Positions 10,195-41,220 of a stretch of DNA of 64,000 nt are shown one piece after another. The translations under genes and the position numbers were made by a program. This DNA comes from Armatimonadota bacterium. Lineage in GTDB: Bacteria > Armatimonadota > UBA5829 > DTJY01. Within the stretch, counting starts at the first letter, position 1; every line of letters begins with the position of its first letter. The stretch lies in NCBI GenBank assembly GCA_963663705.1, contig OY760504.1, positions 2,711,217-2,775,216 on the forward strand, in the 5' to 3' direction. Below the pieces are notes generated by a model. It was not told the DNA's origin and ran no database searches. It saw nothing but the letters and a program-made list of their open reading frames with translations.

Positions 10195-11154
10195 TTATAG
10201 ACCGTACATGAAGTCGAGTATCTTGTCGTCTACGCCGGGGAGACATTCGTGCCCGAAGTCGGGGTAGATCAGCATGTTTTTCTTCGATGTGATTTTGTTG
10301 TAGGCTGCGAATTGCGTGGATGGAGGGCAAATATCGTCTATCAATCCGGTTGTCATCAGCACTTCGGCTTTGATTCGGCTTGCCAGATGTTGATTGTCGA
10401 TATAACCTAGCTTTGTAAATATCTCATCTTTGTGTTCATGTAGGGGATCGGTCATCCTGAAGTACGTGCGCAGTTCCTCGTAAGCGTTTTTGTCCAGATC
10501 CATCTCCCATACACGCAAGTAATCGCAGAGAAACGGCATGAAAGGCGCTGCAAGTTTGATCCTGGGCTCGAGAGCAGCACAGGCGAGCGTGAGTCCGCCT
10601 CCCTGCGAACCGCCTGTCGCTCCTACTCTCGCAGGATCGACTTCCGGCATGCCCATCAGTATCCGAGCTAGTTCGGCGCAGTCCAGAAATACAGAGCGGA
10701 AGAAGAGCTTCTTAGGATCGCCGCTCAATCCACGGATTATGTGGCCTTTATAAGTGTTTCCTGTCACGCCGCCTATGTCTTCCGATAGACCGGCCTGACC
10801 CCGGCAGTCAAGCGCCGCTACGGAAAATCCCTGGCCTACCCAGCTCAGGTAGTTGATCCATTCTCCGCTGTCTCTCGTGTAGCCGTGAAAGAACAGTACT
10901 CCGGGATGAGGCTTGTCTGCTCCCTTGGGGCGGAGATACTTGGCGTGGATGCGCGCCCCGCCGACGCCGGTGAAGTAGAGATGATAGCCCTCTGCAAACG
11001 GATGCTTGTATTCGCTCGGCACCAACTCAACCTTGGGGTCTATGTTTTGCATTTCGGTAAGGCTGTCATCCCAGAACTTGTCGAAATCGGCCGGACGCGG
11101 ATTACGACCTTGATATTCCATCAATTCTTCGAGTGGCATGTCGATAATCGGCAT
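10195..11154 (-). CDS. axe: CE7 acetyl xylan esterase / cephalosporin-C deacetylase family
   Basis: N-terminus MPLEELMEYQGRNPRPADFDKFWDD and the nucleophile elbow GGSQGGGL are hallmarks of CE7 (AXE1) enzymes; 319 aa. Confidence 0.8.
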   Translation of the reverse strand: MPIIDMPLEELMEYQGRNPRPADFDKFWDDSLTEMQNIDPKVELVPSEYKHPFAEGYHLYFTGVGGARIHAKYLRPKGADKPHPGVLFFHGYTRDSGEWINYLSWVGQGFSVAALDCRGQAGLSEDIGGVTGNTYKGHIIRGLSGDPKKLFFRSVFLDCAELARILMGMPEVDPARVGATGGSQGGGLTLACAALEPRIKLAAPFMPFLCDYLRVWEMDLDKNAYEELRTYFRMTDPLHEHKDEIFTKLGYIDNQHLASRIKAEVLMTTGLIDDICPPSTQFAAYNKITSKKNMLIYPDFGHECLPGVDDKILDFMYGL

Positions 11155-11329
11155 TGGATAAGTTCCTCCATCATAATACCTATTGAATAGTAGTAAATAT
11201 TCTTAAACCATTATCGCTCGGTAGCCCGAATTCCTGCCAAATATAGAGCTTTTCTGAAAAATTAGTTACATGTCTATTCGGGGCCTTCTTCGGCGATGAA
11301 TATGGCTACATCAGTCAAAATGCAAGCGA

Positions 11330-11905
11330 AATTCTAGACGCTGTACTGTCCCTCGACGGTGATATTCAGCGGGATTTCTTTCAGCACTTGCAGGCCGGCT
11401 TTGTTGTATAAACTGCGGAAATCGGTAATAGCTGTAAGGGGGATGCTTGGGCTGTTGTACCATTCGCATGGTTACGATGACCATGGCGAACGTGGTCGAT
11501 AAAGGACAGTTGGTATTGGATCCGCGCTAAGTTCAGGATGCTGATTATGCATCCATTCCCACGCTCGACATTTCTTGAATTAGGGATAGCGGGCGGTGCA
11601 GCACTTGGATTGCGTTAGTGAGGTTTACATATGGATGTGTTGGTGCAGTCGGCGAGCCCTTAGTCCGTGAACTCCATTCTCCTCAAAGAACGGGATTACC
11701 CTATGCTCCTTACTCCCCCAGGTGAGATAAAGATGCCCTGTTTCTTCAACTCATTCGATACCCTAATCTGACCGCAGGCCGGTTTCTCAATAGCAAATAC
11801 AAGTACAGCCTCTTCGATGTAACCCTCTACTCGGTTCTTAAGAATCGGCTTCTTTCGGCTGATCTCAAGGAGCGCCATCTCACCGCCGGGCAACGTTTCC
11901 ATGTG
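11330..11905 (-). pseudogene. Degenerate DDE transposase remnant (IS481-like family), with multiple stops and frameshifts
   Basis: The N-terminal HTH segment is intact (MALLEISRKKP...IRVSNELKKQGIFISPGGVRSIG). Downstream frames carry recognisable but broken transposase segments (IQYQLSFIDHV ; LTAITDFRSLYNKAGLQVLKEI). Confidence 0.45.
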
Positions 11906-11959
11906 TTTTTGCCAATTCTATTAACCCGATTTTATTCCGTATTATCTTCTGTTCTGTTG

Positions 11960-12240
11960 TCATCTGACAAAACTTCAGCCTGATCAGGATTGACCGCAAA
12001 TATCCGACGGTCTTAGCAAGATATTACCCTTTACCGTTTGTATTATCCCCATTATAATTGTACATGTTAAGTGTTGATACCTAATCTATGTAGAAATGTT
12101 CACTGAAGAAGCCGCCCGACCGGAAGACATGGATTTCATCTCGATCGTTACCCCGAACTACATGCACTACCCGGTGGCGATCTCATCTCTCGATGCAGGG
12201 CTTTCCGTAGGGTGAGACAAACCGATGACGCTGACACTTT
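11960..12240 (+). pseudogene. Relic duplicate of the 19.5-20.9 kb locus: AraC 3' end, intergenic promoter region, and an internal fragment of a Gfo/Idh/MocA oxidoreductase
   Basis: 11976-12070 matches 19531-19620. Both encode ...PDQD-stop followed by ttagcaagatattaccctttacc. 12130-12216 encodes MDFISIVTPNYMHYPVAISSLDAGLSVG[12 protein letters not shown], matching [37 protein letters not shown] of the 20503..21654 gene. No start codon; there is an internal stop. Confidence 0.55.
12014..12058 (+). promoter_or_regulatory. Operator-like motif TAGCAAGATATTAC followed by a TTTACC-N17-TATAAT promoter (relic copy)
   Basis: Motif at 12014-12027, -35 at 12030-12035, -10 at 12053-12058. Confidence 0.4.
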
Positions 12241-12469
12241 GCGAGGCCAAGGGTGTTCGCAGAATGCAGATTGTCGACAGAAAAAGATATCTTGCCCGTC
12301 GAGCTTATCGTTCGAAAGTGCACAGGTTAGATTGGCTGATATATCGAAGAAAAGGTAATAGTTATGCCACAGATTTGTGGATGGTGTGTGGAGGAGGGAT
12401 GAAAATATGGCATAAGTAAAGTGTCCTGTTTCAAAGGTATTCCACATTTTATAATGAAAGGGCGGTTTT

Positions 12470-13174
12470 ATGATGAAAGAAAAAAGAGGTTTCACCCTGA
12501 TTGAATTGCTAGTTGTCATAGCTATAATAGCTATATTGGCAGCAATCCTGTTTCCTGTATTCGCAAAGGCAAGGGAGAAGGCACGGCAGGCATCATGCCA
12601 GAGCAATGTTAAGCAGTTGACTTTGGGCATGCTAATGTATACTCAGGATTATGATGAGACACTCCCTCCCTGGATTGTAGGAATGAGCGGTACATTTCCA
12701 AATGGTGACCCGGCAAGTAGTGGAGACCCGGCGGGCTATCAGATATGGCTGACATGTATCTATCCTTATGTTAAGAACAACAAAGTCTTTGTGTGCCCCA
12801 GCGCTGGCGGATTGGACTATACAGGAGGACAGTACTGGGGGGGAACGTTTGGGGCTAATAATCCGAAGATCGCTTCGTATGGTGCGAATTCGTGGATACT
12901 GTCGAGCATATACACCGGCGGTGTTACGATGTCAGATATAAAAATGCCGTCGGATACTCCTTTTATAGCCGATTGTGATTACTATATGGTTGGACCATAC
13001 ACGGGCGGCGATGCTTATAACACTAGGGTGCCTGCGGCACGGCACAATGATATGGTAAACATTGGGTTCGCGGATGGCCATGTAAAGACGTGTAAACAGG
13101 ATGCTTGGGTCACTTCGGGCGGTAAATCGTGGCGCGACCCTGTATGGGTGAAATGGTCGCCGGATCTTCAATAA
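12470..13174 (+). CDS. DUF1559 / H-X9-DG protein with a prepilin-type N-terminal cleavage-methylation domain
   Basis: N-terminus [40 protein letters not shown]; C-terminal GFADGHVKTC motif. Confidence 0.85.
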   Translation: MMKEKRGFTLIELLVVIAIIAILAAILFPVFAKAREKARQASCQSNVKQLTLGMLMYTQDYDETLPPWIVGMSGTFPNGDPASSGDPAGYQIWLTCIYPYVKNNKVFVCPSAGGLDYTGGQYWGGTFGANNPKIASYGANSWILSSIYTGGVTMSDIKMPSDTPFIADCDYYMVGPYTGGDAYNTRVPAARHNDMVNIGFADGHVKTCKQDAWVTSGGKSWRDPVWVKWSPDLQ

Positions 13175-13496
13175 TATTGTTCTGACACTAGATAAAGTGG
13201 TGATAGGTAAGCCTCCGGCAGATACGGGGGCTTACCTTCAAAGTAGTCCATCATACCAAACATGAACCTATCAACGTAAAGTGAAATCTGTTACAACCTC
13301 AATAGGCTAGTGGATGTTATTATGCAGGTCAGGGATAAGCGGGAAGACTTCTTCGGGCTGTTACTTGCAGACATGGATACCGGTAAAGGATCATCCCTCA
13401 TGTGATATGAAAACGAAAATGTAACAGACTGCACGAGCAGTCTATGGTAGTTGAGTAAAATACATACTTAAAGATACCCGATAGGAGCAATGATCA

Positions 13497-15539
13497 ATGG
13501 ATCTTAGATGCGAAAAATTGAGCCTTAGTGTAAACGGTCAAGGAATTGTGGAATCCGTACGACTTATCGATAAAGACTACGAGTTTATAACCGGTGCAGC
13601 AGGTTACTCGGCGGTCGAAGATTGCCTGCAGAATTCTATCAGCGGAGACCCTGATGGCGAGACTCCGCAGGCAGCGACCCGCGTAGAGAACGGCTCGATT
13701 TACGTCACGAGGTCATTTGCGAGCGGGCTTGTGATAGAAGATACCTTCTCATCCGATTCCGGTGCGGTCCGGTGGAGAGTGCATGTCTCTACTTCGGAAA
13801 AGACTCCTAGAACTGCGAATCTCTTTCTCGTTCTGCCGGTACTCGGGCAGGACCGGCACGTCTTCGTTACGCACAACGACGCACCGCTCTCGCCGGGGAA
13901 TTTCCGCCATGTGCGCTATGTGTACGGAGGCGATCAGTTCCGAGGCGAGCTGCACAGGGCTGTGGCTCTCCCAGTCGTTACGTTTTACAAGCGCGAGGCG
14001 GACGCCGGACTGACTTGTGCAGTACCCGCGGGCTTGCCTGTGCCTGCCATATGGTATTCGATGTTCCACGAGTCGGATAAGGTAGGCTTCGTGAGTAAAT
14101 TTGTGAACATGCGGCTCTCGGCCAAGCATCCGATCGAAGTTGAGATGCTCATACACGGGCATGGCGGCAACTGGCAGGACGGCTTGTCCTGGTATAGCGA
14201 CCGGTATCACGATTACTTCACGGTCAAGAACGAGGATGTCTACAGGACTGAGGGCGCTATGATCTGTTCGCACGTCCTGCACAGCGAAGATGAAATCAGG
14301 AGATGGAAGGCACAGGGCTTCGCATGGCAGGAACTTCATGCCAACATGCTCTCCTACTACGGAGAATACATGCCGGAGGGCGAGCGATGGGAGACGATCA
14401 ACTCCAAATACCTTGCCAAGAACTTGGACCTGCGGAAGCTCGCCGCTCTCGATCCCGTGGGCGTAGAGTACAACACGCTGACCCAGTGTGCGCCGGATCC
14501 GTATATGAGCAAGAACCGCCTGCGCGAGTACATCGATACTCTGCACAAGAACGGTGTGGCTGCTTTCATCTACTTTAACCCCGTACTCTGCGACAAACAG
14601 ATAGTGGGGAGGTTCGAGTCCGACATAGCTAGAAACGAAGACGGCACACCCTGTGCTAATGGATACTACTTTGGCGTAAGTATGAACCCGGACCCCAATG
14701 GAGGCTGGGGGCGTCATCTGATACAACAGGTCGAGCGCATGATGAGTGAGTTCCCGAACTGTGACGGCATATTCTACGATGAGGTGCATTACCGCCATTA
14801 CGATTTCGCCCACGACGACGGCATCACGATGGTTCACAACAAGCCATGCTCCATGATAGGCTTCGCGATGGCTGATCTGGCAGAGCGTATCTGCGGAATC
14901 GTGCATGCCGCCGGAAAAGTCGTTTGGGCAAACGGCCCGACAAGCCTGGAGGTTGTTAGATACCTGGACGGATGTATGGCCGAGCATAGCAGCACATGGA
15001 TGGGCACGGTGCAGTATTTCTGTCTGGAGAAGCCGATGGTGCTGCTCGCCGGCGGAGACCCTGTCGATAAGCTCTGGGACGGATTCAAAAAGTCATTGGT
15101 CTGCGGTGGGCAGCCGGACGTACTCTGGAAGCTCGATGAGCAGGCAATTTCCGGCGATAACAAGGAGAATCTCTCTCCGAAACCGGCCGACGATCCTGCT
15201 CGACAGGCGCTATGCACGGCGTTCAGACCTCTGCTCGATATGATCAAGGGGCGCAAGTGGGTGCTCCAGCCGAACGTGCTCGAACTACCTGAAGGCGTAG
15301 TCGGCAACTTTTTCGAACTCAGGGACGGCTCTATCGCCATACCTCTGGCTGTGGATCAGCCGCAGAGCAATGTAACGGTGAAGGTGAAGAATACACTTCT
15401 TCCCGAGTATGCAAAGGCTGAGGTAATTACAACGGAGGGCGCTATTGCATCAACTTTGCGTATCGGATCAGGGGATATGTATGCCTCGATAGACATACCT
15501 CTTCTCCAACATGCAGCAGTAATCCGTCTTAACAGCTGA
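13497..15539 (+). CDS. Conserved hypothetical cytoplasmic protein (680 aa), with a paralog at 62001
   Basis: Long ORF with a coding pattern and no signal peptide. It is highly similar to the 62001.. ORF. Conserved segments HGHGGNWQDG, YFNPVLCDK, VWANGPTS. No family assignable by eye. Confidence 0.6.
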   Translation: MDLRCEKLSLSVNGQGIVESVRLIDKDYEFITGAAGYSAVEDCLQNSISGDPDGETPQAATRVENGSIYVTRSFASGLVIEDTFSSDSGAVRWRVHVSTSEKTPRTANLFLVLPVLGQDRHVFVTHNDAPLSPGNFRHVRYVYGGDQFRGELHRAVALPVVTFYKREADAGLTCAVPAGLPVPAIWYSMFHESDKVGFVSKFVNMRLSAKHPIEVEMLIHGHGGNWQDGLSWYSDRYHDYFTVKNEDVYRTEGAMICSHVLHSEDEIRRWKAQGFAWQELHANMLSYYGEYMPEGERWETINSKYLAKNLDLRKLAALDPVGVEYNTLTQCAPDPYMSKNRLREYIDTLHKNGVAAFIYFNPVLCDKQIVGRFESDIARNEDGTPCANGYYFGVSMNPDPNGGWGRHLIQQVERMMSEFPNCDGIFYDEVHYRHYDFAHDDGITMVHNKPCSMIGFAMADLAERICGIVHAAGKVVWANGPTSLEVVRYLDGCMAEHSSTWMGTVQYFCLEKPMVLLAGGDPVDKLWDGFKKSLVCGGQPDVLWKLDEQAISGDNKENLSPKPADDPARQALCTAFRPLLDMIKGRKWVLQPNVLELPEGVVGNFFELRDGSIAIPLAVDQPQSNVTVKVKNTLLPEYAKAEVITTEGAIASTLRIGSGDMYASIDIPLLQHAAVIRLNS

Positions 15540-15818
15540 CTGTATGTCACTGATTCTGAATAGGGCCTCGATAAATAGACGCCATAAGGTAGGATGAAGA
15601 CAAAGCGCCGTGCAGAGGGCCTCGAGACTTTTGTCACGATAGATACCTGAGTGCTACATCATACAAAGTAAGTATGCTCAGGCTCTGATATGGCAAATGA
15701 ATGGATATAATTCGCCATAAGAATAGAAAACAACCATTTGCTAAGGTGAGGGCAAGACAAAAGAACTGCTTGCTAATTATGGAAGATATACAGCCTAAGT
15801 GCAATATATCGCCGGTTA

Positions 15819-15862
15819 TAGCAAGATATTACTCTTGAATCCCCACTGTGGAATGCTATACT
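15819..15862 (+). promoter_or_regulatory. Operator-like motif TAGCAAGATATTAC plus a TTGAAT-N16-TATACT promoter upstream of the aminotransferase operon
   Basis: Same 14-nt motif as at 12014 and 19565, abutting a putative -35. Confidence 0.4.
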
Positions 15863-15914
15863 TATTATGCAACAGCGAATCTGTATTTGCAACAAGATCA
15901 GGGGGATTACTAAA

Positions 15915-17189
15915 TTGGGTGATAAACTTGCACTTTTAGGTGGAAAACCGGCTGTAGACAAAGATGTAGAATTCAAAATATGGCCGGAAGTTACCAAAGA
16001 AGACGAAGAGTATGTGCTGGCATCTCTTCATCAGAACAATCATGCCTGGGGGCCCAACTGCATTGCGCTCCAGGATGAGTTTGCCGCATGGAATGGCAAC
16101 AAATTCTGCGCTGCCACAAACAGTGGCACGGCGGCGCTTCATATGGCGATAGCTGCATTTGGCATAGGCCCGGGCGATGAGGTGATTACCACCACACTCT
16201 CATGGACCTCCACTGCCACGTGTGTGATGCATCACAATGCCATCCCTATCTTTGTAGAAGTGGATTGGGATTCTATGCTGATAGATCCCAAAAAGATTGA
16301 AGCAGCCATCACCCCGAGGACCAAGGCCATTCTGCCAGTGCACTACTGGGGTGTGCCGTGCGACATGGACGCAATAATGGCAATTGCAAAGAAGCATGGG
16401 CTATATGTTTTGGAAGACGCGTGCCAGGGCCACGGTGCTACCTACAAGGGTCGGAAGACCGGTACTTTTGGGGAGTGTTCCGCCTTCAGTCTCAACCAGA
16501 ACAAAAACTTCTCCGCGGGTGAGGGCGGTCTATTTGTCACAGAGGATGAAAAACTGTTTGAGGCGGCACGTGCGCTGATGAGCTTTGGCGAGATGCGCGC
16601 TCCTGAATCGAATCGGGACTTCCACTCCTACGGCATGGGCTGGATGTATAGAACCGATGATATTTCAGCGGCATACGCCAGGAGTGCCCTTGCCAAACTG
16701 GATAAGACAAACGCGCAGGCCCGGGCAAATTTCGACCGTCTGCAAAACAGCCTGCAGGGCCTTAAGGGGATCGTACTGCCGTTTGACACCGAAGATCAGA
16801 AGAGTAACGGATATGCATATGTGATAAGGGTAGAACCGGAATCCGCAGGCTGGAACGGTAAAGCTTCGGAATTTCGCGATATCGTGATAAACGCACTTGC
16901 GGCCGAAGGCGTCCCGGTGGCGTCTGCCAGGTGGATGCTTCCCGCACATACGGTGTTTCAGGCGAAGAACGGTTACGGCAAAGGCTGCCCATGGGAGTGC
17001 CAGTACGCCCGGCAGGATATCGACTATTCTCTGGATCAGTATCCCATAACAAACCGCGTGGTGGACACCTGCATTCAGATAGCCATCAACGGGCATCGCC
17101 CCCCGAACGGCGGCGAACAGTTAGATGCGATAGCATCAGGTATCCGCAAAGTATTCGAGAACCTGGATCAGCTTCCGAGCGAAGCATAA
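15915..17189 (+). CDS. DegT/DnrJ/EryC1/StrS family PLP-dependent aminotransferase
   Basis: Family-typical blocks GDEVITTTLSW, AILPVHYWGVPCDMDAIMAIAKKHGLYVLEDACQGHG, SAFSLNQNKNFSAGEGG. TTG at 15915 has a GGGGG RBS and is preferred. The in-frame ATG at 15867 would sit at the predicted transcription start. Confidence 0.75.
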   Translation: MGDKLALLGGKPAVDKDVEFKIWPEVTKEDEEYVLASLHQNNHAWGPNCIALQDEFAAWNGNKFCAATNSGTAALHMAIAAFGIGPGDEVITTTLSWTSTATCVMHHNAIPIFVEVDWDSMLIDPKKIEAAITPRTKAILPVHYWGVPCDMDAIMAIAKKHGLYVLEDACQGHGATYKGRKTGTFGECSAFSLNQNKNFSAGEGGLFVTEDEKLFEAARALMSFGEMRAPESNRDFHSYGMGWMYRTDDISAAYARSALAKLDKTNAQARANFDRLQNSLQGLKGIVLPFDTEDQKSNGYAYVIRVEPESAGWNGKASEFRDIVINALAAEGVPVASARWMLPAHTVFQAKNGYGKGCPWECQYARQDIDYSLDQYPITNRVVDTCIQIAINGHRPPNGGEQLDAIASGIRKVFENLDQLPSEA

Positions 17190-17260
17190 AATATGCAGGC
17201 GGCGGAAGATACTCCTCGAAATCTTTCGCCGCTTACGTGAAAATAATGGGAGAGCACATC

Positions 17261-18556
17261 ATGAAAGTTGGAACCGCATGGGCGGATATCACCCCATCCG
17301 TCCCCATAGACATCGTAGGGCAAATGGTTGTGAGAAAAGGGAAGTACACCCACGACCCGATAACAGTGAATGCCGTAGTCTTTGAGAAAGATGACACAAA
17401 GGTGGCGCTGGTCTCCTGTGATCTCTGTTATATGGGGATTAATGTCATTGATGATGTTCAGACTTTGTGTGAAAAGGAACTAGGGATACCGGCGGCTTCG
17501 GTTATCATCGCCTGCACTCACACGCATCTGGCCCCTGCCACACGCGATACGTTGTATGGAGACGTAAACGAAAATTTTATAAAAACGTACAAAGAATCTG
17601 TGGTAGATATAGTCCGCAGAGCCCTGAAAAATGCAGAAGATGTCGATATCTACGCCGGAGCAGGATGGATCGATCAGATGGGATTCAACCGCCGGGGGAT
17701 TACCAAAGCCGGTCACGCGGAGATGTATTACGGCAGCTGGGAGGCAGACTTCGACAGGGTGGAAGGCCCGCGAGATGGTCAGGTCGGCGTTCTGTTTGCC
17801 CGCAGACCGGATGGTAGCATAAAAGCAGTGGTTACCTCATTCTCTACCCATCCGAATTCTATGGAAGGCGAAAGCTTCTACAGCGCAGATCTGGTAGGCG
17901 CTACAAGAAATTTCTTGCGGCAGAATCTCGGCGAAGATGTGGGCGTAGTCTATCTCACCGGCGCCGCAGGGGATACCGCTCCGAGCAAACTTGATGATAA
18001 CAAGAACGGTGAGATGCCGTGGCGTGGAGAGGAAGGATGGAAACGTTCGGGACTATATCTCGGCAGCGAGATACTAAAAACCATCGCAGGGACGATAAAA
18101 CCGATGCCTGATCCCCTCTTGCGTCTGGAGCAGGAGTCGGTACCCATAGCGATCCGTCCCTGGCCTAATTTGACCTGGATGTCGAACGACACCCTCAGCG
18201 ATGCCTTCCAGGACTTCTATAGTCTGGAGAAAGAACGCTGGCCCGAAGTCATACGCAAGGAAAGCCCAATGAAGGTTCGCATCAACGTTCTGCGCATAGG
18301 GGACGCGAGCATCTGTACAAACCCAGGAGAATTGTTCGTGGACTACGGGCTGCAGATCAAAAAGTCGTCCCCATCAAACATTACGCTCATCTCCGAGCTT
18401 ACGGACGGCAATGTCGGTTATGTTCCTACAGAAGAAGCTTTCCGGCACGGGGGATATGAAACAATGCCTGCAGAAAGCAGCTTACTTGACGAGCCCGCGG
18501 GAGGGATCATCGTACAAACCACCCTGAATCTACTGAACAAAGCCTTTACGGCATAA
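17261..18556 (+). CDS. Neutral/alkaline ceramidase-like N-terminal domain family hydrolase (putative)
   Basis: MKVGTAWADITPSVPIDIVGQMVVRKGKYTHDPITVNAVVFEKDDTKVALVSCDLCYM fits the G-A-x-DITPP...HDPL-A-A...LVSLDL pattern of bacterial ceramidase-like proteins. RBS GGAGAG 6 nt upstream. The listed ORF's 16931 start overlaps the previous gene. Confidence 0.45.
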   Translation: MKVGTAWADITPSVPIDIVGQMVVRKGKYTHDPITVNAVVFEKDDTKVALVSCDLCYMGINVIDDVQTLCEKELGIPAASVIIACTHTHLAPATRDTLYGDVNENFIKTYKESVVDIVRRALKNAEDVDIYAGAGWIDQMGFNRRGITKAGHAEMYYGSWEADFDRVEGPRDGQVGVLFARRPDGSIKAVVTSFSTHPNSMEGESFYSADLVGATRNFLRQNLGEDVGVVYLTGAAGDTAPSKLDDNKNGEMPWRGEEGWKRSGLYLGSEILKTIAGTIKPMPDPLLRLEQESVPIAIRPWPNLTWMSNDTLSDAFQDFYSLEKERWPEVIRKESPMKVRINVLRIGDASICTNPGELFVDYGLQIKKSSPSNITLISELTDGNVGYVPTEEAFRHGGYETMPAESSLLDEPAGGIIVQTTLNLLNKAFTA

Positions 18557-18683
18557 CACTTTCAAGAAGGAGATTTGCAGTCGAAGCTGGAAATTGGTTT
18601 TAGCAATAGAAAGTGCTAATCGACAGGAATCATCGCCGGCATCAACGGCGCTGACTGAGGTGCTTCCTCTTCGAGGAATGTAG

Positions 18684-19544
18684 ATGGCAGTAGATAAATT
18701 GGAATTCTTAACCGAAATGGGAGAATACCTCCCGGAAATCACATGCATCGGACGTTCTATCTTCGATCCTGTATATGCAGAGGAAGAACACGTTGATAAA
18801 TCGTCCGAGCTCATTCACTTTCTGCATGGGCGCGGGGAGGTTCGGACCCGTGATTTCACTATATACGGCAAAGAGGGTGATAGTATCTACCTGCCTGCCG
18901 ATGTGCCGCATCGCGACATATTTGAAAAAGGCTATGCATTTGAAGCGTACCTGGTCCAATTCCGCTGGGCAGGCGAAGAGAGTTTGCTCAAGGCGTTTCA
19001 TCCGTCGCAGCTGGCCGATATCTCGGAGCCGGGTAAGCTGCGGATCGCCGCGGAATTTCAAAGCCTCTTTAGCGATTTTTCCGATCATATGCCTTTTGGG
19101 GCAGAGATGACTAGCCTGAACATTCTGCGCATCATAGCCATCATGTGCAGAGAGGCTGGAAATATTGCAGGGATGGAAGATCTTCACTCAAGCGATGTGG
19201 GCAAACCGCGGCGCGTGCAGTTGATGATGCAGGCCAAGCGCATTATCATGGATAAGTTCAACGAACCCATAAACCTTGCTCTCATCGCATCGCAATTGAA
19301 TATCAGTTCATATTACCTCTCGAGAGTCTTCAGCGAAGAGAGCGGGTTCCGGCTGTCGAGCTATCTGACCCAGATTCGCATGGAAAAGGCTGTCGCGATG
19401 CTCGACGATTCCCGCCTCAACCTCGCTGAAGTCGGGCGGGCCGTTGGTTTTAGCGATAGCCACTACTTCGGGCAGGTCTTCAAGGCTTATTTTGGAATAT
19501 CCCCCAAAGTTTACAGGGCAAAACTTTTGCCTGATCAGGATTGA
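18684..19544 (+). CDS. AraC family transcriptional regulator
   Basis: C-terminal double HTH (SYYLSRVFSEESGFRLSSYLTQIRMEKAVAMLDDSRLNLAEVGRAVGFSDSHYFGQVFKAYFGISP) with an N-terminal sensing domain. Confidence 0.8.
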   Translation: MAVDKLEFLTEMGEYLPEITCIGRSIFDPVYAEEEHVDKSSELIHFLHGRGEVRTRDFTIYGKEGDSIYLPADVPHRDIFEKGYAFEAYLVQFRWAGEESLLKAFHPSQLADISEPGKLRIAAEFQSLFSDFSDHMPFGAEMTSLNILRIIAIMCREAGNIAGMEDLHSSDVGKPRRVQLMMQAKRIIMDKFNEPINLALIASQLNISSYYLSRVFSEESGFRLSSYLTQIRMEKAVAMLDDSRLNLAEVGRAVGFSDSHYFGQVFKAYFGISPKVYRAKLLPDQD

Positions 19545-19564
19545 CCGCAAATAACCAACCTTCT

Positions 19565-19609
19565 TAGCAAGATATTACCCTTTACCATATGTACCATCAA
19601 CACTATAAT
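19565..19609 (+). promoter_or_regulatory. Operator-like motif TAGCAAGATATTAC plus a TTTACC-N17-TATAAT promoter for the isomerase/oxidoreductase/xylA operon
   Basis: Motif at 19565-19578, -35 at 19581-19586, -10 at 19604-19609. The region starts inside the last codons of the AraC gene. Confidence 0.45.
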
Positions 19610-19666
19610 TATTGCATACCAAGCATTTTTTTGAGGCCTGCTTGCCAGGCGACTCTGGAGGAAACG

Positions 19667-20506
19667 ATGCGATATGCGATGATGTCTTACACAATGGCTA
19701 TTGGAGACTGGGGTAAAGATTGCGACGTTGCCGAACTGTGTCACATAACCTCAACGATGGGCATTGAAGGAATTGATTGGGTTACGACTTACGGTGTCTC
19801 CCCGCGAGAAGTGAAGATCCTCATGGATGATCATGGCCTGAAAACGGTCTGCTACACCTTCGATGTTGATGTGAACTTTCCCGAGAGGAGTGCACGACAG
19901 GCTGGTGTGGATGATATCAAACGTGGAATAGACACGGCGCTGATTCTGGGTACGGACAGGGTGATGCTGCCTTTTCCCGGCAAAGATGCGTTCTCCCGCG
20001 AGGAAAGCCGTGCGAATATCATTGCAGGGCTCAGCGATGCGATGGATTATGCCAAATCGTGCGGTGTAATGATAAGCACGGAGCACTTCTCAACGCCTAA
20101 TGCCCCATTCATAGTCTCGGCGGATATGAACGCCGCCATCCGCGAACTCCCCGACCTCAAGGTGACATTTGACAGTGGAAATGTCCTCATCGGTGGAGAG
20201 AACCCTGTTGATGGATTCCTCCGCAGCAAAGAGTCCATTGTGCATGTTCATTTCAAAGATTTCGCAGAGAACGGATGTCGCTTTACCGGGCTTGATGGGA
20301 GATTGTATGACGCTGCGCTGATAGGGGAAGGCATTGTCGATTACCCGCCGCTTGTTGCAGCCATGATAGACGCCGGATATGACGGCTGGATCAATATAGA
20401 GTACGAAAGCGGTGAATATCCCGCAGACAAGGCTGTGCGTAAAGCCATAGATTACCTGAAATCCATAGAAGACCGGCTCATGGAACCAGCTGGGAGCAAG
20501 CTATGA
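19667..20506 (+). CDS. Sugar phosphate isomerase/epimerase (xylose-isomerase-like TIM barrel)
   Basis: TIM-barrel family pattern. RBS GGAGGA before the ATG at 19667. The longer ORF start at 19589 lies upstream of the predicted -10. Confidence 0.65.
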   Translation: MRYAMMSYTMAIGDWGKDCDVAELCHITSTMGIEGIDWVTTYGVSPREVKILMDDHGLKTVCYTFDVDVNFPERSARQAGVDDIKRGIDTALILGTDRVMLPFPGKDAFSREESRANIIAGLSDAMDYAKSCGVMISTEHFSTPNAPFIVSADMNAAIRELPDLKVTFDSGNVLIGGENPVDGFLRSKESIVHVHFKDFAENGCRFTGLDGRLYDAALIGEGIVDYPPLVAAMIDAGYDGWINIEYESGEYPADKAVRKAIDYLKSIEDRLMEPAGSKL

Positions 20507-21654
20507 ATCGAAAGATCAGAATGGGTATGGTAGGCGGCGGAGTAGGTGCATTCATCGGTGGTGCACACCGCATGGCTGCGCAATTGGATGGACAGATAGA
20601 ACTGGTCTGCGGCGCGTTCAGCTCCGATCGCGATAAGTCGATGGCGAGCGGGCGTGCTTTGTATCTGCCTGATGACAGAATTTACGGTAGCTATCAGGAT
20701 ATGTTTGCGAAGGAATCAGCCCTGCCATCGAGTAAGCGGATGGATTTCGTCTCGATAGTCACTCCGAACCACATGCATTATCCGGTGGCAATGGCAGCCC
20801 TCGATGCAGGGTTTCCTGTGGTATGCGACAAGCCGATGACGCTGACTCTTGATGAGGCCAAAGCCCTCGCGAAAAAGGTTGAAGAGACAGGGCTCCTGTT
20901 CTGCCTCACCCATAATTATACGGGTTATCCTATGGTTAAAGAAGCTCGTGATCTGGTTAACGGCGGCGCATTAGGTGCAGTACGGCGCGTGGTGGTCGAG
21001 TACCCGCAGGGCTGGATGGCGACTTCCCTTGAATCGACTGGTCAGAAACAGGCAGATTGGAGAACCGACCCTGCACGTGCAGGCGCAAGCTTCACTATGG
21101 GCGATATAGGCAGCCACTGCGCAAATCTTGCCGAGTACATCACCGGTCTTGAGATTGAGCAGGTTTGCGCTGATCTCACATCGTTCGTGCCCGGCCGTGC
21201 GCTCGACGACGACGGCAGCGTGCTCCTTCGCCTGAGCGGTGGTGCAAAAGGCGTACTCTGGGCGAGCGATATTGCCGTTGGTGAAGAGAACGACCTGAAC
21301 ATCCGCGTCTACGCAGAAAAAGGCGCGATCGAGTGGCACCAGCATGATCCCAACACCCTCATCGTTCACTGGCTAGACAAGCCAAGTGAGATTCGGCGAA
21401 CATCCACCGGCTTCGTAGGCGCAAACGCAGCCTCGAACACGCGCCTTCCTGCCGGACATGTGGAAGGCTTCCTGGAAGCGTTCGGAAACATCTACAAAAA
21501 CTTCGCCGACACACTGACCAAGCGGCTTGAAGGCGATACATCCGCAACCGGCGACTTCCCCACTGTAGATGATGGCGTCCGTGGGATGGCCTTTATTCAA
21601 TCAGTGGTAGAGAGTTCGGCATCTAATCAAAAATGGATAAATATCAAAGCTTAA
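20503..21654 (+). CDS. Gfo/Idh/MocA family oxidoreductase
   Basis: [17 protein letters not shown] Rossmann N-terminus; CDKP motif; ATGA overlap with the upstream gene. Confidence 0.8.
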
Positions 21655-21665
21655 GGGGAATTGAA

Positions 21666-22661
21666 ATGAGCGCAAGATTAGTTACACTATTCACCGGACA
21701 ATTTGCAGATATACCGCTCGAGGAACTTGCAAAAAAGGCCTCTGGTTGGGGATTCGACGGGCTGGAACTGGCCTGCTGGGGTGATCACCTTGATGTCTTC
21801 CGAGCGGCAAGCGATAAGGACTATGCACAGGGACAGGTTGACCTCCTCGCTAAGCATGGGCTGAAGGTCAGGTCCATAAGCAACCATCTGGCAGGGCAGC
21901 TTATATGCGATTTGAACAACGACGCTCGATCAGACGCGTTTGCCCCCGCAGAGTACGCAGGCGATCCTGATGCAAAGCGTGCATGGGCTATCGAAAGCAT
22001 GAAATGCGCCGCCCGCGCAGCAAAGAATATGGGCGTCAAAGTGGTAAACGGCTTCACTGGATCATCCATCTGGCACCTCATCTACAGTTTTCCGCCAGTA
22101 AGCGAGGAGATGATACAGTCAGGTTTCGCCGACTTTGCAGCCAAGTGGAACCCGATTCTAGATGTATTCGATGAGTGTGGGGTCAAGTTTGCGCTTGAGG
22201 TACATCCTACAGAGATAGCGTTTGATATAGTTACCGCCAGGCGTGCACTGGCAGCAGTAGGGAACAGGGAAGCGTTCGGCTTCAACTTCGACCCAAGCCA
22301 TCTGCACTGGCAGATGGTCGATCCTGTAAAGTTCATACAGGCGTTTTCCGATCGTATATATCATGTGCATATGAAGGACGCAGCGCTTACTTTGGATGGA
22401 GAGGCCGGGATACTGGCGTCATACATGAACTTCGGCACGCCAGGCAGAGGCTGGGATTTCAGGAGCGTCGGGCGCGGTGAGGTCGACTTCGAATCGATCA
22501 TACGGGCGCTGAACGTCATAGGGTACGATGGTCCGCTGTCTGTTGAGTGGGAAGATGCTATGATGGACAGGGAGTTCGGCGCTGCCGAATCATGCCGTTT
22601 TACCAAGGACATCGACTTCCCGAAGTCTGACCGGGTATTTGACGAAGCCTTCGGTAAATAG
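21666..22661 (+). CDS. Sugar phosphate isomerase/epimerase (xylose-isomerase-like TIM barrel)
   Basis: RBS AAGGGG, then ATG at 21666. Family-typical His/Glu/Asp distribution (HVHMKD ; EWED). Confidence 0.65.
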
Positions 22662-22686
22662 GTTATCTAGCGCAGGAGAAGTTTAT

Positions 22687-23439
22687 ATGAAACCAATAGC
22701 AGTTCAATTGTATACCCTTCGTGCCGAAGCAGAGAAGGATTTCCCCGGCGTGCTTCGCAGGGTAGCGGATATCGGTTACAACGGCGTCGAAACAGCCGGA
22801 TTGCATGGCCATGATCCCAAAGAAATCGCCAAACTAATCAGCGATTTAGGGATGGTGGTGTGCAGTAGTCATACCGACCTTCCGAATCCAGACAACATAG
22901 GCGATATCGTGGAGACGGCACAGACCCTTGGTAACACAAGAATCGTAAGCGGTTTCGGCCCTGACGACTTTACGACACCGGATTCATGCAAGGAGATCGC
23001 AGCCAGATTCAGCCTTGCCGCCGAACTCCTCAAACCGTACGGCATGAGCTTTGGCTTCCATAATCACTGGTGGGAGTTCAGGTCCTTCGAAGGCAAATAC
23101 GCATACGACATCCTTATGGCCGAAGCCCCGAATGTGTTCAGCGAACTTGATGTATACTGGACGGCTTTCGCAAAAGCGGACCCGGTGAAGGTCGTCGCTA
23201 AGTATAAGTCCAGAATACCGCTTCTGCACCTTAAGGATGGCACGCTTCAGGAAGGTGTCCCCATGACGGCGGTCGGATCGGGAGTGGTTCCTATTCCCGA
23301 GATCGTAAATGCAGCCGATCCTGAATCACTCGAATGGTTGATAGTAGAGCTTGATGAATGTGCAAGCGACATGTTTGAAGCCGTTGAACAGAGCTACAAA
23401 TATCTTACTTCACAGAGGCTTGCATCAGGCATCAAATAG
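22687..23439 (+). CDS. Sugar phosphate isomerase/epimerase (xylose-isomerase-like TIM barrel)
   Basis: MKPIAVQLYTLRAE N-terminus typical of this family; RBS AGGAGAAG. Confidence 0.65.
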   Translation: MKPIAVQLYTLRAEAEKDFPGVLRRVADIGYNGVETAGLHGHDPKEIAKLISDLGMVVCSSHTDLPNPDNIGDIVETAQTLGNTRIVSGFGPDDFTTPDSCKEIAARFSLAAELLKPYGMSFGFHNHWWEFRSFEGKYAYDILMAEAPNVFSELDVYWTAFAKADPVKVVAKYKSRIPLLHLKDGTLQEGVPMTAVGSGVVPIPEIVNAADPESLEWLIVELDECASDMFEAVEQSYKYLTSQRLASGIK

Positions 23440-23538
23440 TACCAAATGGTAGCCCTGTATCGGCAGATTCACTCGATCAATGGCGCTCGTTTCGTTTCTG
23501 CCGATAAGGAAGCTATCTTAATGCAAACGGAGGTAATT

Positions 23539-24597
23539 ATGGCAGGGAAGTACAGATTTTCATTCGGACCTTGGAATATACATGAGGGGGCAGACCCATT
23601 CGGCCCTATGGTAAGGAGCCAGTTCTCGTTCAAAGAGAAGCTGGAATTTGCGGTAAAAGAAGGGTTTCAGGGCATCCAGTTCCACGACGACGATGCAGTT
23701 GATATAACACTCCCTATCGCAGAGCAGGACAAAAAGCTCGCGGAATTGAAGTCGATGCTGGACGGAATGGGGCTTGAGGCAGAGTTCCTTGCACCGAGAC
23801 TGTGGGAGCATCCGATGACAATCGACGGCGGCTGGACCTCAAACAGCGCCGCATGCAGACAGTATGCATACGATAGATCAAAGAGAACCGTCGATATCGC
23901 GAATGCGCTAGGCACAAAGCGGATAGTTCTTTGGCCGGCTAGAGAAGGCACATATATCCGCGAAGCCAAAGACCCAAAAGTAGCAATCGACAGATTTGTA
24001 GATTACATCAACATGCTCCTCGAGTATGACAAAGAGATAAAGGTCCTTGGTGAGATGAAACCGAACGAGCCCATGGACTCGACTTTCTGCCCGACGACCG
24101 GCCACTTCCTTGCGATCGGGTCAAGAACCATCGATCCTGAAAGGGTGGGGATTCTGATCGAGAGCGCGCATGCAATCCTCGCAAACCTCGAGCCGTCGGA
24201 AGAGATGGGATTTGCACTCTCCTTTGGCAAGCTATGGGGCGTTCACCTAAACGATCAGAACGGTCTCAAGTTCGACGAGGACAAGACCTTCGGCAGCGTG
24301 AACCTCGGTCGAGCGTTTTCTCAGGTATACATCCTCGATAAATACGGCTATGGACAGAACGGTGAATACGTAGGCCTCGACATCAAGGTGCTCAGAACAC
24401 AGGCGAAGGAAGTCTCAATGAAGCATCTCTCGAACAGCAAGAAGATATTCGAGATGCTTGTGGAGAAGGTTCATGCCTGCGATCACAATCTGATCGAGGA
24501 ACTTCGTGCGCAGCGTGACTACGAAGAGCTTAGTCTGTACATCACAAATATCCTGCTTGGGGCGGGGCCGGCCAATGCAGTTTTGCCGAAAGCATAG
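23539..24597 (+). CDS. xylA: Xylose isomerase, class I (short) type
   Basis: RFSFGPWNI...DPFG...IQFHDDD matches the class I XylA N-terminus RFTFGLWTV...DPFG...VTFHDDD. A catalytic KPNEP block (EMKPNEPMD) and an HLNDQNGLKFDEDKTFG metal-binding block are present; about 353 aa. Confidence 0.75.
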   Translation: MAGKYRFSFGPWNIHEGADPFGPMVRSQFSFKEKLEFAVKEGFQGIQFHDDDAVDITLPIAEQDKKLAELKSMLDGMGLEAEFLAPRLWEHPMTIDGGWTSNSAACRQYAYDRSKRTVDIANALGTKRIVLWPAREGTYIREAKDPKVAIDRFVDYINMLLEYDKEIKVLGEMKPNEPMDSTFCPTTGHFLAIGSRTIDPERVGILIESAHAILANLEPSEEMGFALSFGKLWGVHLNDQNGLKFDEDKTFGSVNLGRAFSQVYILDKYGYGQNGEYVGLDIKVLRTQAKEVSMKHLSNSKKIFEMLVEKVHACDHNLIEELRAQRDYEELSLYITNILLGAGPANAVLPKA

Positions 24598-24629
24598 TTC
24601 CCTCTGTAAAGTAGTTGGAGTCCAAAAAC

Positions 24630-24870
24630 ATTGATGCGTATGTCCTTCCCACCAGGCTCAAGCAGAGGAAGGCCGCAAGAAATACGGGGCTTCGCAAAGA
24701 GACTGTAGAGCCGGTCTTCGGGATAAAGGAATGCCGTGGTTTCCGCCGGCTTTTCGATGCGCGGAGTAGAGAAGTGTGAGAGGGAATGGAGTCTTGTCTG
24801 TACCGCGCACAATTTGCTGAAGTTGTTCCGCCATGGCGCCGCAGACAGGTTGAAGGCGGCAACGTCATGT
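24630..24870 (+). pseudogene. C-terminal remnant of an IS1182/IS5-like transposase (frameshifted)
   Basis: Frames encode KETVEPVFGIKECRGFRRLF and then, after a frame change, GVEKCEREWSLVCTAHNLLKL. This is the conserved C-terminal signature of IS1182-type transposases. No N-terminal part is present. Confidence 0.45.
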
Positions 24871-26385
24871 GGAAAACCAGCAAATATGATGCAATATCAA
24901 GCCTGCACCGCCTGATATTGCGTCTGCAGCAGACAAATTCACGCAGATTCGGACGATAGTCTCATGTTGGGCCTATCAAAAAAGAATCGGAATCTGTTCG
25001 GCTAGAGTATGGGAGGTATAGTATGAGGAACTCCGCCAATACTCGGACAGCCTCCTAGGGATACCACTGGAATCAATCCGGAATGCGTTACTACCGATGG
25101 GCTGGAATCATACCGCAGGGTGAAATGCCGAACATCGAACCAGCAAGTACATGGAACCATCGAATTGAACAGGATCACGAGGTATTAAATCATGCTATAA
25201 GCCTATGCTTGGTTTTAAGTCGTTCGTGTCTGCAGCCATATTTCGTCCGGCATATGATGTAGTACGTCAGTATTTTTCAACGTCTGTTTAAACGCAAGTC
25301 CTGCCGCCACACCGGCGCAATGGATATACGGAATCGGAATACACGTGTAACAAAAAAGTGAAAGGCCCATGTGCTTATTGATCCACACGGGGATGGGGGA
25401 TTATTTCGCCCCCAGCCCTCTGCGATCCGCCTGAGTGTCTCGTTAAGAGATGCAGTGTTCCACGAAGTATCCTCGAAACACCTATTCGTTGAAAACGCAA
25501 AGGGAAATGTCAGTAAGTGATCTGTTGTTGATGTGAAACTGTGCAAGAGCCCTGAATGAAGATCGGGTGATGCATCCCGGGCTACGGATTAAAGTGTACA
25601 AATCAAGGCGTGTTATTCTATGTCTAGCCTTGTTCGTTTGGTACTATTCATACTCTTCATCAAGTCTGTCCAGATAGTTGTTAAGGATTTGATCGTAGCA
25701 ATTATCAATTACTTCCTCGATACTTGCGAGTCTGCAATCAGCGCAGATCAAGCGGGTAATATGTGGAGGAGCTGACCCTTCATCCAAGAGTCTCCCCCTG
25801 ATATTTGTCGGTACTTGGCGCGGGGCTGATGCACGGACACATGGTGCCACGATTCGCTTTTGGGAAAGCTATTGGGCAATCGGTTGGCATAATCTTTATC
25901 TAGTAACAGGTAATATAGATTATTATTACTGCTTTTACAATACCCTTATGGCTTGTCTGAATTTGATTGATATTCAATCGGGGCGGGTGTATTTCTGCTA
26001 TACTCCAGAACCTGTAATTTATGACAATAGCCATCGTCAGGTAGCCGGTGAAACACATTTGCAGATTGCCGGCCCCGGATCGGGATTCGAGGCCGGCTGT
26101 GAGACGCATGAGGTCACAAAGCTTCTGGTGGATACAGTGTTATATAATGCCTACCTGTTTTGCGATAATGGGCACTGTAAAGGCTTGAATATCGAATGCG
26201 TAGAAGAAGGCGATTGTGTGAGTGTACGGCCGTTAAGCAAATTGCTCTCCAGTCTATTTATCAACAATTCATGCTTGGGTTATTCTTTGAATCTTGATGC
26301 TTGGGCAGGGAAAACGGTAATTTGGCATGGTTTGCCGGATCAGGATTAAGCAGGCTGGAGACAGATTGTGCTAATGTGTTTCGCG

Positions 26386-27984: not shown

Positions 27985-28575
27985 TATATTATTCCTTGAT
28001 GCGTGTGCAGGGTGATAAACTATGATATATCGGATTGAGGCGTTTGAGCGTCACAAAATTTCGCATGGAATTTGCACGAACATGCGGAAGCGTGTAAGCT
28101 CCCTCATGTTCGATTTGTAATCATAATTTGCTATGTATGCCAGGCGTCAATTATTAATCTATCGATGCCTTCTAAGGAACATTAGCCCTGGCTTAACGCT
28201 GCTTATTAACCCGTCGAGCATTACTATACTTAGTCCCGAGGGCTCAGGTACGGGTGCTGCCGGTGATATGGCGATAAAGGTAGGCGCACCCACCGGATGA
28301 TCTGCTATTGCGGTAATTATATACCATGGCAACAGGATATTGTCAAGTAATAATGCAATAAATTGTTACTGTCCAGCGACTTTGTCCCGGTTAATTGTCC
28401 AGCGATTATGTCCCATCCAGATACCGTGAAAAATCAAAAACAATGGTGAAATTCTCCATTCACACGGTGTGCTGAAGATGGTAAACTTTGCTCATGATAC
28501 AGCCTCGATGTGATGAGTGCTTATCTGCAAGCGGGTTTTGCGGTGATATTTCGTCAAAGAACGAGGAGGACTAAG

Positions 28576-29187
28576 GTGAAGAGCAGGAGAGGTTTTACGC
28601 TGATCGAACTCCTAGTCGTCATAGCTATAATAGCTATTCTGGCGGCGATATTGTTCCCGGTTTTCGCCAAAGCACGCGAGAAGGCTCGGCAGGTCACCTG
28701 CCTGAGCAATCTGAAGCAGATCGGCACTGCAACGATGATGTATGTGCAGGACTACGATGAGCACTTTCCTCTCTTTGGCGGAGCAATCCGTTTCCCCGGT
28801 ACGATAAGCTGGGCTACGGCGATCTCACCGTATGTTAAGAACACACAGGTCTTTCACTGCCCGAGCGATAATCTGCCTGGTTCTACCTGTACTTATGGCA
28901 ACAACTACCAGCTAGCCGCATACACCTATCCGGAACGGTCGGTAGGGTCGATAATGCGCCCATCTTCGGTGATACTCTGGTACGAGAGCAACTACACGGA
29001 TACGAACTACCGGAAAATCGAGCAGAACGATTGGTCCGAAGGGTTCGGATTCGTCAATGGAAATGCCCATGCGAACGGCGCGAACTTCTGTTTTGCAGAC
29101 GGACACGCGAAATGGTATCCGGCAAAGACCGAGGCCGCCTGGACGCAGAACGGCATAAGCTTCAACCCGGATAACGATAGCATTTAG
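28576..29187 (+). CDS. DUF1559 / H-X9-DG prepilin-type N-terminal domain protein
   Basis: GTG start after RBS AGGAGGA; [36 protein letters not shown]; C-terminal FADGHAKWY. Confidence 0.85.
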
Positions 29188-29335: not shown

Positions 29336-29947
29336 ATGAGGAATAGGAAAGGTTTCACGCTGATCGAGCTCTTAGTAGTAATAGCCATAATAGCGATACT
29401 GGCGGCTATACTCTTCCCGGTCTTCGCGAAGGCTAGGGAGAAGGCCCGACAGACCGCTTGTGCGAGCAATCTGAAGCAGATCGCCACCGCTACGCTGATG
29501 TACGTGCAGGACTACGACGAGTCTTTCCCCCTGTTCGGTGCAGGGAATCGCTTCCCGACGACAATAAGCTGGGCTATGGCAGTCTCGCCTTATGTTAAGA
29601 ACAGACAGGTATTTAGATGTCCGAGCGACGGGCGCAGTGGTATTACATGCAGCTATGGCAATAATTACAATCTAGCGCCGTACAACTTGTCGGCTCGGAT
29701 GCTCGGTTCGGTGCTGCGTCCGTCTTCCATAATACTCTGGTACGAGAGCAACTTCTGGAATTCGGATTACTGGCTGATCGAGCAGCATGACTGGGCGAAT
29801 GATTTCTCGACCGTCAATACAACGATCCATTCGGACGGTGCGAACTTCGCTTTTGTCGACGGGCATGTGAAGTGGTATCGCGTCGGCAGAACCGGCGATT
29901 GGACGCAGAACGGCATCAGCTACAATCCCGACAACGACAGTCTCTAG
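29336..29947 (+). CDS. DUF1559 / H-X9-DG prepilin-type N-terminal domain protein (tandem paralog)
   Basis: [39 protein letters not shown]; C-terminal FVDGHVKWY. High similarity to 28576..29187. Confidence 0.85.
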   Translation: MRNRKGFTLIELLVVIAIIAILAAILFPVFAKAREKARQTACASNLKQIATATLMYVQDYDESFPLFGAGNRFPTTISWAMAVSPYVKNRQVFRCPSDGRSGITCSYGNNYNLAPYNLSARMLGSVLRPSSIILWYESNFWNSDYWLIEQHDWANDFSTVNTTIHSDGANFAFVDGHVKWYRVGRTGDWTQNGISYNPDNDSL

Positions 29948-41150: not shown

Positions 41151-41220
41151 TCCATGCCTCCTCGCCCTCTACACTAATTATACACTAGAGGCTGTTTCAT
41201 ATATATTGACACAGAGGGGA

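Follow-up and report, generated by a model that had tools for sequence, protein, structure and literature searches.

Class II activation is known for AraC at araI1-araI2, for XylS at Pm and for RhaS. AraC binds half-sites that are direct repeats spaced by two helical turns, the proximal one lying over the −35 element. The sugar-catabolism activators RhaS/RhaR and MelR of Escherichia coli act locally and in response to an effector, switching on catabolic operons next to them from sites that abut the −35. The Pm promoter contains two direct repeats, each composed of a box A and a box B, and one XylS monomer occupies each repeat (PMC5481539). Here we describe a 64-kb stretch of contig OY760504.1 from an Armatimonadota bacterium (the window), in which an AraC/XylS-family regulator gene lies between two operons, one starting with a DegT-family aminotransferase gene (DegT) and the other with a TIM-barrel gene, and in which the 14-mer TAGCAAGATATTAC stands before the predicted promoter of each. 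Each copy of TAGCAAGATATTAC is one part of a composite of about 40 nucleotides (nt). Comparison with the loci of regulator homologs suggests that this composite is a two-part operator with TAGCAAGATATTAC at the core of its promoter-proximal half, and that the protein recognizing it is probably the regulator encoded between the two operons.

Anatomy of the predicted operator

Three exact copies of TAGCAAGATATTAC are present in the window, all on the + strand (12014-12027, 15819-15832 and 19565-19578), and a search of the window at two or fewer mismatches gave no additional match (0.28 expected). It is the sole 14-mer with at least three occurrences in the 64 kb, and a 14-mer repeated that often arose in none of 200 block shuffles. 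A −35-like hexamer begins 2 nt past the end of every copy and is followed by a −10-like hexamer (Table 1), which at the 15819 copy has TGc directly upstream and so constitutes an extended −10. Transcription is predicted to start near 15869 and 19616, and near 12065 for the 12014 copy. The first-pass annotation, which had reported the same 14-mer before a sigma70-like promoter at three places, was therefore right about the positions, and its count of the evidence has to be lowered. Segments 11968-12059 and 19519-19610 are a single duplicated stretch of 92 nt (86% identical) that takes in the 3′-terminal 27 nt of the AraC gene, whereas the 15819 copy has only 27 nt in common with the other two (85-89% identity) and its flanks are unlike theirs. 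Because the 12014 copy lies in a duplicate of the 19565 region, these alignments put the number of independent copies at two rather than three.

Every copy has a second GCAA (at 11996, 15801 and 19547), located exactly 20 nt to the 5′ side of the one that TAGCAAGATATTAC contains. The composite takes the form of two direct repeats of ~13-17 nt each, a distal GCAAnnnAnTnC and a proximal GCAAGATATTAC(C/T)CTT that runs into the −35, with GCAAnnnAnTnC common to both; in the window copies the distal repeat reads GCAA(T/A)ATA(T/A)C, and all three follow the order GCAA, 16 nt, GCAAGATATTAC, 2 nt, −35, 16-17 nt, −10. An AraC/XylS-type operator is likewise built of a pair of direct-repeat half-sites, spaced by about two helical turns. 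A matrix of the composite scored the three window sites at 32-38 bits (for the 19547 composite, 38.5 bits with fixed and 34.6 bits with variable spacing) and the next best window position, on either strand, at 4.9 bits. The scatter of the motif inside genes that had been named as counting against a shared operator is thus not seen in the sequence available.

An extra GCAA-N16-GCAA pair, GCAACAGCGAATCTGTATTTGCAACAAGAT, is located just 3′ of the DegT −10 at 15869-15898, in the predicted 5′ untranslated region. With a single mismatch to the extended pattern and no obvious conservation in orthologs, it could be an auxiliary site or chance.

The regulator

The regulator, a protein of 286 amino acids, carries an N-terminal cupin and a C-terminal double helix-turn-helix (HTH). 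PF12833 matches residues 201-279 at 71 bits (cut-off 33.6) and PF00165 matches at 51 bits, in keeping with the two HTH motifs that family members have in a C-terminal domain of about 100 amino acids, and PDB entries for the DNA-binding domains of AraC, MarA, Rns and SoxS are matched as well. The N-terminus, where the family has its domain for ligand binding and dimerization, is a weak match of cupin type, with AraC_binding at 22.1 bits (cut-off 21.1) and Cupin_2 at 25.1 bits (below its cut-off of 27.2), and the homologs of the regulator have the same precomputed domains. No NCBIfam equivalog (AraC, RhaS/R, MelR, PocR, FeaR and others) is reached; PocR comes first with 72 bits against a cut-off of 500, followed by AraC with 67 bits against 208. 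Conservation within the regulator family is highest in two stretches, SPYYLSRVF and DSHYFxxVFK, which are the recognition-helix motifs of the two HTHs; this fits a conserved DNA target.

Conservation of the site in other genomes

Homologs of the regulator were collected and their loci fetched, and every locus was scanned with matrices derived from the sites of L004, L009 and the window. Specificity of the motif was assessed on the 64-kb window plus about 0.3 Mb of related loci, and the control set comprised 1.06 Mb of non-orthologous AraC loci from Firmicutes, read on both strands (2.1 million positions). Directly after the AraC stop codon, L004 (AraC 50% identity) has GCAAACAATTCCccctcttcGCAAAATATTGCCCTTTACC, and the ATG that follows aligns with window position 19667; L009 (AraC 49% identity) has GCAAGCAAGTCCacttcttcGCAAAAAGTTCACCTTGTCG in the corresponding place. 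The matrix scan gave more sites in L011, L014 (two) and L016, and loci fetched later contributed sites in L088, L089, L091, L092-94 and L012, as well as a weaker one in L010, so that about eight Phycisphaerae lineages have the composite next to an AraC ortholog of 40-50% identity. Across genomes the consensus reads GCAAnnnAnTcCaC, then a short linker and GCAAaAtaTTcCCcTTg, or GCAAnnnanTcCaCntnaTcGCAAaAtaTTcCCcTTgtc for the full composite. The distance between the two GCAA elements is 20 nt in the window and in most orthologs, corresponding to two helical turns, and 21 nt in one clade (L088 and L010). Leave-one-out scores of the ortholog sites were 19-44 bits, compared with control maxima of 20-24 bits, and the 19547 window site scored 21.4 bits when both window sites were left out of training.

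A scan with variable spacing detected sites that had not been used in training, with the sequence GCAATAAATTCCACCAAAACGCAATATTTTTCAGTTGGCA, beside homologs of 31-33% identity in Kiritimatiellia and Verrucomicrobiota. Both sites in L018 and those in L019 and L022 scored 27-30 bits and the site in L021 scored 19.3 bits, the control maximum being 22.2 bits. As judged from these matches, the regulator-operator pair spans two Planctomycetes-Verrucomicrobia-Chlamydiae (PVC) phyla. The strong sites outside the window are all intergenic or lie across the AraC stop codon, and all are directed at the downstream gene. Alignment of ~15 natural variants showed that the register of the proximal repeat to a TTG-type hexamer is fixed in all of them, and that in most sites the −35 is followed at 16-17 nt by a −10-like hexamer. 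The earlier proposal of an operator abutting the −35 in an AraC regulon therefore stands insofar as the same site recurs in the same register beside AraC orthologs and the more distant homologs, before like genes; it had to be modified insofar as the site is a direct repeat and not a single 14-mer.

Two kinds of candidate were set aside as chance. A match to the proximal matrix at position 348 of L019 (20.7 bits) appears intragenic and is without a distal repeat, and a metagenome-wide scan for GCAA-N14-TAGCAAGATATTAC returned 25 matches in low-GC (mostly 32-48%), unrelated sequence, belonging to about eight repeated families and lacking the CYCTT/−35 continuation.

In L092-L094, an inserted insertion sequence (IS)-like gene with transposase-type domains (HTH_23/28/29/32) separates the AraC ortholog from the conserved operator with its target gene. 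The closest homolog (58% identity) is that of locus L003, which comes from the metagenome that also contains L001. L003 has a degenerate, one-base-shorter ATCAAATATTACCGGATTACA at 1370-1400, 40 nt past the stop codon and without a same-strand gene downstream, which may be a decayed site.

A second strain, L001 (ENA ERZ21878447 ctg35430l), aligns with window positions 15793-21223 and encodes an identical AraC protein; its synteny with the window starts at 15793, 8 nt before the distal repeat. This strain lacks most of the ceramidase-like gene (window 17236-18518), of which an open reading frame (ORF) of 76 amino acids (aa) is left, and has a MatE gene upstream of the DegT promoter in place of the 680-aa gene found in the window.

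A relic, probably of a second copy of the locus

With fixed spacing the composite of the duplicated segment at 11968 scores 33.1 bits, and with variable spacing 30.1 bits; its two half-sites, −35 and −10 are all intact, and the linker and spacer have diverged. About 19 nt after the segment begins a fragment of a Gfo/Idh/MocA oxidoreductase gene that contains an in-frame stop, and upstream of the segment no further part of the AraC gene survives. The relic and the live copy are 80-86% identical and are thus far more diverged than the two strains (97-99%); the relic is probably the remnant of a second, diverged and decayed copy of the locus. Only 1 of 13 mismatches between relic and live copy falls in a conserved column, which is not significant alone (P = 0.15), and pooling the strain and relic differences leaves 1 of 20 in columns conserved across species or in the −10, where ~5 were expected (pooled P = 0.02).

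A lone copy of the relic distal half-site with its flank, ACCGCAAATATCCG, is present in intergenic DNA at 61315-61328, with no second GCAA 20 nt downstream. It is probably a chance match, because ~8 chance duplicates of a 14-mer are expected.

On the 3′ side of the relic, a DUF1559/prepilin-type gene (12470-13174) and then the 680-aa gene (13497-15539) follow on the same strand, with no terminator predicted between. Judged by this DUF1559 gene and by homologs that carry the label Phycisphaeraceae, the host groups with Phycisphaerae-like planctomycetes. The 680-aa protein, encoded upstream of DegT, is without a firm family and has only a faint GHL6 glycosyl-hydrolase-like match; its gene has a paralog of 76% DNA identity near the window end, at about 61988-64000. 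It was rejected as a conserved regulon member, because the large proteins encoded nearby in L016 and L009 are not similar to it.

Genes behind the sites

The gene directly behind the site encodes DegT in the window, L088, L014, L016, L091, L012 and L010, a TIM barrel in the window and L004, and the ceramidase-like protein in L089; the ceramidase-like gene is also found inside the operons of the window, L004, L009, L088 and L010. In L011 the site precedes an EamA transporter gene, a Gfo/Idh/MocA gene and then AraC itself. One L014 site precedes an alanine-dehydrogenase-like N-terminus (our reading of the sequence, without a family search), and in L009 and L092 the first gene encodes a protein of unknown family, for which a URO-D-like identity was rejected when BLASTP against the URO-D protein of L004 proved not significant. 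In Kiritimatiellia L018, genes for NAGidase/GH20b-like, FG-GAP, GH42-like and S15-peptidase proteins lie behind the site. L004 and L009 have the TIM-barrel, ceramidase-like and DegT genes in a single operon with a single site, whereas in the window the same kinds of gene are divided into two operons around the regulator, with one site each. It is this difference in arrangement that argues most strongly for a single regulon comprising both window copies.

The position of the regulator gene between the two live operons, as first annotated, was confirmed. The five genes of the downstream operon overlap or are at most 6 nt apart, and the last of them cannot carry the label xylA that it had been given: its protein reaches 183.6 bits with TIGR02631, for which the cut-off is 447, and is only xylose-isomerase-like. 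The start codons argued for earlier, TTG 15915 and ATG 19667, agree with the ortholog alignments. In an N-terminal alignment, seven DegT orthologs start 1-6 residues before a conserved KLAxxGG, matching TTG 15915, from which the protein is 424 aa long (423-434 aa in the orthologs), and the alignment of the TIM-barrel protein starts at M27, which is ATG 19667 (MRYAMMSY versus MNYAMMTY). The mechanical ORF of the ceramidase-like gene, from GTG 16931, overlaps DegT by 259 nt; the protein read from ATG 17261 (MKVGTAWADITP) aligns with its L088 ortholog from residue 1 (E = 3e-43), which supports ATG 17261 as the predicted start rather than GTG 16931.

In the 127-nt gap between the DegT operon and AraC neither a promoter nor a terminator is predicted, and AraC may be co-transcribed with that operon. 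Basal expression probably results from read-through out of the regulator gene, because the operator starts 3 nt past the stop codon of AraC and in L089 overlaps that codon. A riboswitch or other leader was considered as an alternative, and Rfam at the gathering score reports no family in 11000-25000.

Table 1. Coordinates of the features described, in the window unless a locus is named.
Feature	Position	Strand	Details
Relic segment	11968..12059	+	last 27 nt of AraC gene, half-sites 11996 and 12016, −35, −10; 86% identity to 19519-19610
Predicted promoter at 12014 copy	−35, 12030-12035; −10, 12053-12058	+	TTTACC; 17-nt spacer; TATAAT
Gfo/Idh/MocA oxidoreductase pseudogene fragment	12078..12264	+	residues 61-124; tblastn 59% identity, E = 4e-19
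Distal half-site, DegT operon	15801..15814	+	GCAATATATCGCCG; GCAA exactly 20 nt before proximal GCAA
Proximal half-site, DegT operon	15821..15840	+	GCAAGATATTACTCTTGAAT; holds most of the 14-mer, enters −35
Predicted promoter at 15819 copy	−35, 15835-15840; −10, 15857-15862	+	TTGAAT; 16-nt spacer; TATACT
DegT/DnrJ/EryC1-family pyridoxal phosphate (PLP) aminotransferase	15915..17189	+	PF01041, E = 8e-91; start TTG 15915
Ceramidase-like hydrolase	17261..18556	+	neutral-ceramidase N-terminal domain, PF04734, 34 bits (weak); start ATG 17261
AraC/XylS-family regulator	18684..19544	+	N-terminal cupin, C-terminal double HTH; Pfam
Distal half-site, TIM-barrel/oxidoreductase operon	19547..19560	+	GCAAATAACCAACC; starts 3 nt past AraC stop codon
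Proximal half-site, TIM-barrel/oxidoreductase operon	19567..19586	+	GCAAGATATTACCCTTTACC; includes −35
Predicted promoter at 19565 copy	−35, 19581-19586; −10, 19604-19609	+	TTTACC; 17-nt spacer; TATAAT
TIM barrel, xylose-isomerase-like	19667-20506	+	first gene of five-gene operon 19667..24597; Pfam, NCBIfam
Gfo/Idh/MocA oxidoreductase	20503-21654	+	operon gene 2; Pfam, NCBIfam
TIM barrel	21633-22661	+	operon gene 3; Pfam, NCBIfam
TIM barrel	22639-23439	+	operon gene 4; Pfam, NCBIfam
Xylose-isomerase-like protein	23446-24597	+	operon gene 5; Pfam, NCBIfam
GCAATAAATTCCACCAAAACGCAATATTTTTCAGTTGGCA composite	L018 9931 and 1504; L019 3877; L022 510; L021 3773	-	divergently upstream of AraC homologs

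Two internal repeats were seen elsewhere in the window. Adjacent genes for ~200-aa proteins at 28510-29187 and 29336-29947 have many 14-mers in common at an offset of 760 nt, and a stretch of ~200 nt is present twice, 1.4 kb apart, at 39585-39800 and 40983-41200.

Discussion

The gene arrangements and the shared site make it probable that the regulator controls both flanking operons, that is DegT with the ceramidase-like gene, and the TIM barrel with Gfo/Idh/MocA and three more TIM-barrel proteins. According to the model, the regulator would bind as a dimer, placing one double-HTH domain on each repeat, and binding of an effector to the cupin domain would allow it to recruit or stabilize RNA polymerase from its position overlapping the −35. 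The effector would presumably be a substrate or an intermediate of the encoded pathway. On the predicted promoters the proximal site abuts or overlaps the −35, which is the placement of a class II activator, and effector-dependent class II activation by a dimer is the direction of regulation that we favour.

Several observations weigh against this regulon. A promoter scan of the whole window found 21 promoters where shuffles led us to expect 17.6, an absence of enrichment which means that the predicted promoter status draws on the conserved register and that the hexamers alone prove little. The DegT site (15801) scored only 10.6 bits when both window sites were left out of training, a value that seven control positions also reach; its support lies mainly in where it stands and in its identity to the second window site. 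The loci L003, L005/6/8, L013, L015, L090, L017 and L020 showed no site in the sequence available, several of these contigs being short, and at a few GC-rich ortholog sites (L088, L091 and L012) no convincing −10 could be read by eye. Two more such points, the overlap with the −35 and the presence of a second AraC-family gene in the window, belong to specific alternatives.

The same regulator and operator could act in repression, the occupied −35 excluding RNA polymerase until the effector releases the protein. The proximal repeat lies over the −35, where occlusion is possible, and the −10 elements of the window (TATAAT and TGcTATACT) are good and might work without an activator. The −35 hexamers, by contrast, are imperfect across lineages (TTTACC, TTGTCG, TTGGCC and others), which is typical of activator-dependent promoters. 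Proteins combining a cupin with an AraC-type double HTH and acting on direct repeats that abut the −35 are nearly always activators (AraC, RhaS, XylS, MelR), and this general knowledge of the family favours activation for such a site geometry. We therefore consider repression unlikely.

A functional motif bound by a different protein, with an incidental linkage to the AraC gene, would find a candidate in the second AraC-family gene at 36713-37555. That gene is distant in both senses, being only 30% identical in the DNA-binding domain and 17 kb away, whereas the site adjoins an ortholog of the regulator encoded at 18684-19544 in about a dozen genomes from two phyla despite differing neighbour genes, and direct repeats at two-turn spacing are an AraC-family signature; we regard this explanation as improbable. 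That the repeats are duplication leftovers with no regulatory role is very improbable and already contradicted by conservation across the genomes compared: the 12014 and 19565 copies can be shown to belong to one duplicated segment, but the 15819 copy has only the operator in common with them and not the flanks, and the motif is kept in intergenic DNA between loci whose regulators are 31-50% identical, a distance at which neutral sequence would be randomized.

It is possible, though we hold it doubtful, that an old AraC subfamily with a near-unchanged operator extends across Phycisphaerae and Kiritimatiellia and in Phycisphaerae switches on an undescribed catabolism of N-acylated amino sugars or aminocyclitol-like compounds, an assignment of pathway made from domain content alone. 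In one possible order of the reactions, the ceramidase-like amidase would take off the acyl group, the DegT-family aminotransferase, a kind of enzyme normally seen in biosynthesis, would take off the amino group, and the Gfo/Idh/MocA and TIM-barrel enzymes would process the resulting keto-sugar. The enzyme set points loosely to an effector of the amino-sugar type, as does the operator in Kiritimatiellia, behind which lie N-acetylhexosaminidase-like genes and others for glycan degradation.

Little work appears to exist on how Planctomycetota and Kiritimatiellia regulate transcription, and regulon inference there is rare; a literature search for AraC-type regulons or promoters in planctomycetes or Phycisphaerae found nothing relevant. 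The locus provides a concrete regulator and operator pair that is directly testable, and the conserved register suggests that sigma-70-type −35/−10 promoters with activators overlapping the −35 operate in these organisms. DegT, the ceramidase-like protein, the TIM barrels and Gfo/Idh/MocA form a predicted co-regulated unit worth characterizing, with three start codons corrected, and the site offers a candidate inducible promoter for genetics in bacteria that are hard to manipulate.

Comparison with described systems

XylS at Pm, on the TOL plasmid of Pseudomonas putida, resembles the window system in having two direct-repeat half-sites of which the proximal one reaches the −35, in a half-site with a 5′ box (TGCA in Pm, GCAA in the window) and a 3′ box a few bp on, and in a regulator with an N-terminal sensor and a C-terminal double HTH. 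It differs in the sequence of the half-sites, which is unrelated, and in sensor type and effector. AraC at araI1-araI2 of pBAD in E. coli has, like the window regulator, a cupin-type N-terminus and an AraC DNA-binding domain, and the NCBIfam AraC model matches residues 121-281 of the regulator at 66.6 bits. Unlike in the E. coli system, an O2-like distant looping site was not identified in the window, the regulator gene is in tandem with its predicted targets, and these are not arabinose genes. RhaS/RhaR and MelR give weak matches to the DNA-binding domain of the window regulator (38-45 bits, against equivalog cut-offs of 253-525) and differ from it in operator sequence and gene content. The regulator-operator pair is previously undescribed, but it is of the well-known AraC-family local-activator kind and mechanistically as expected.

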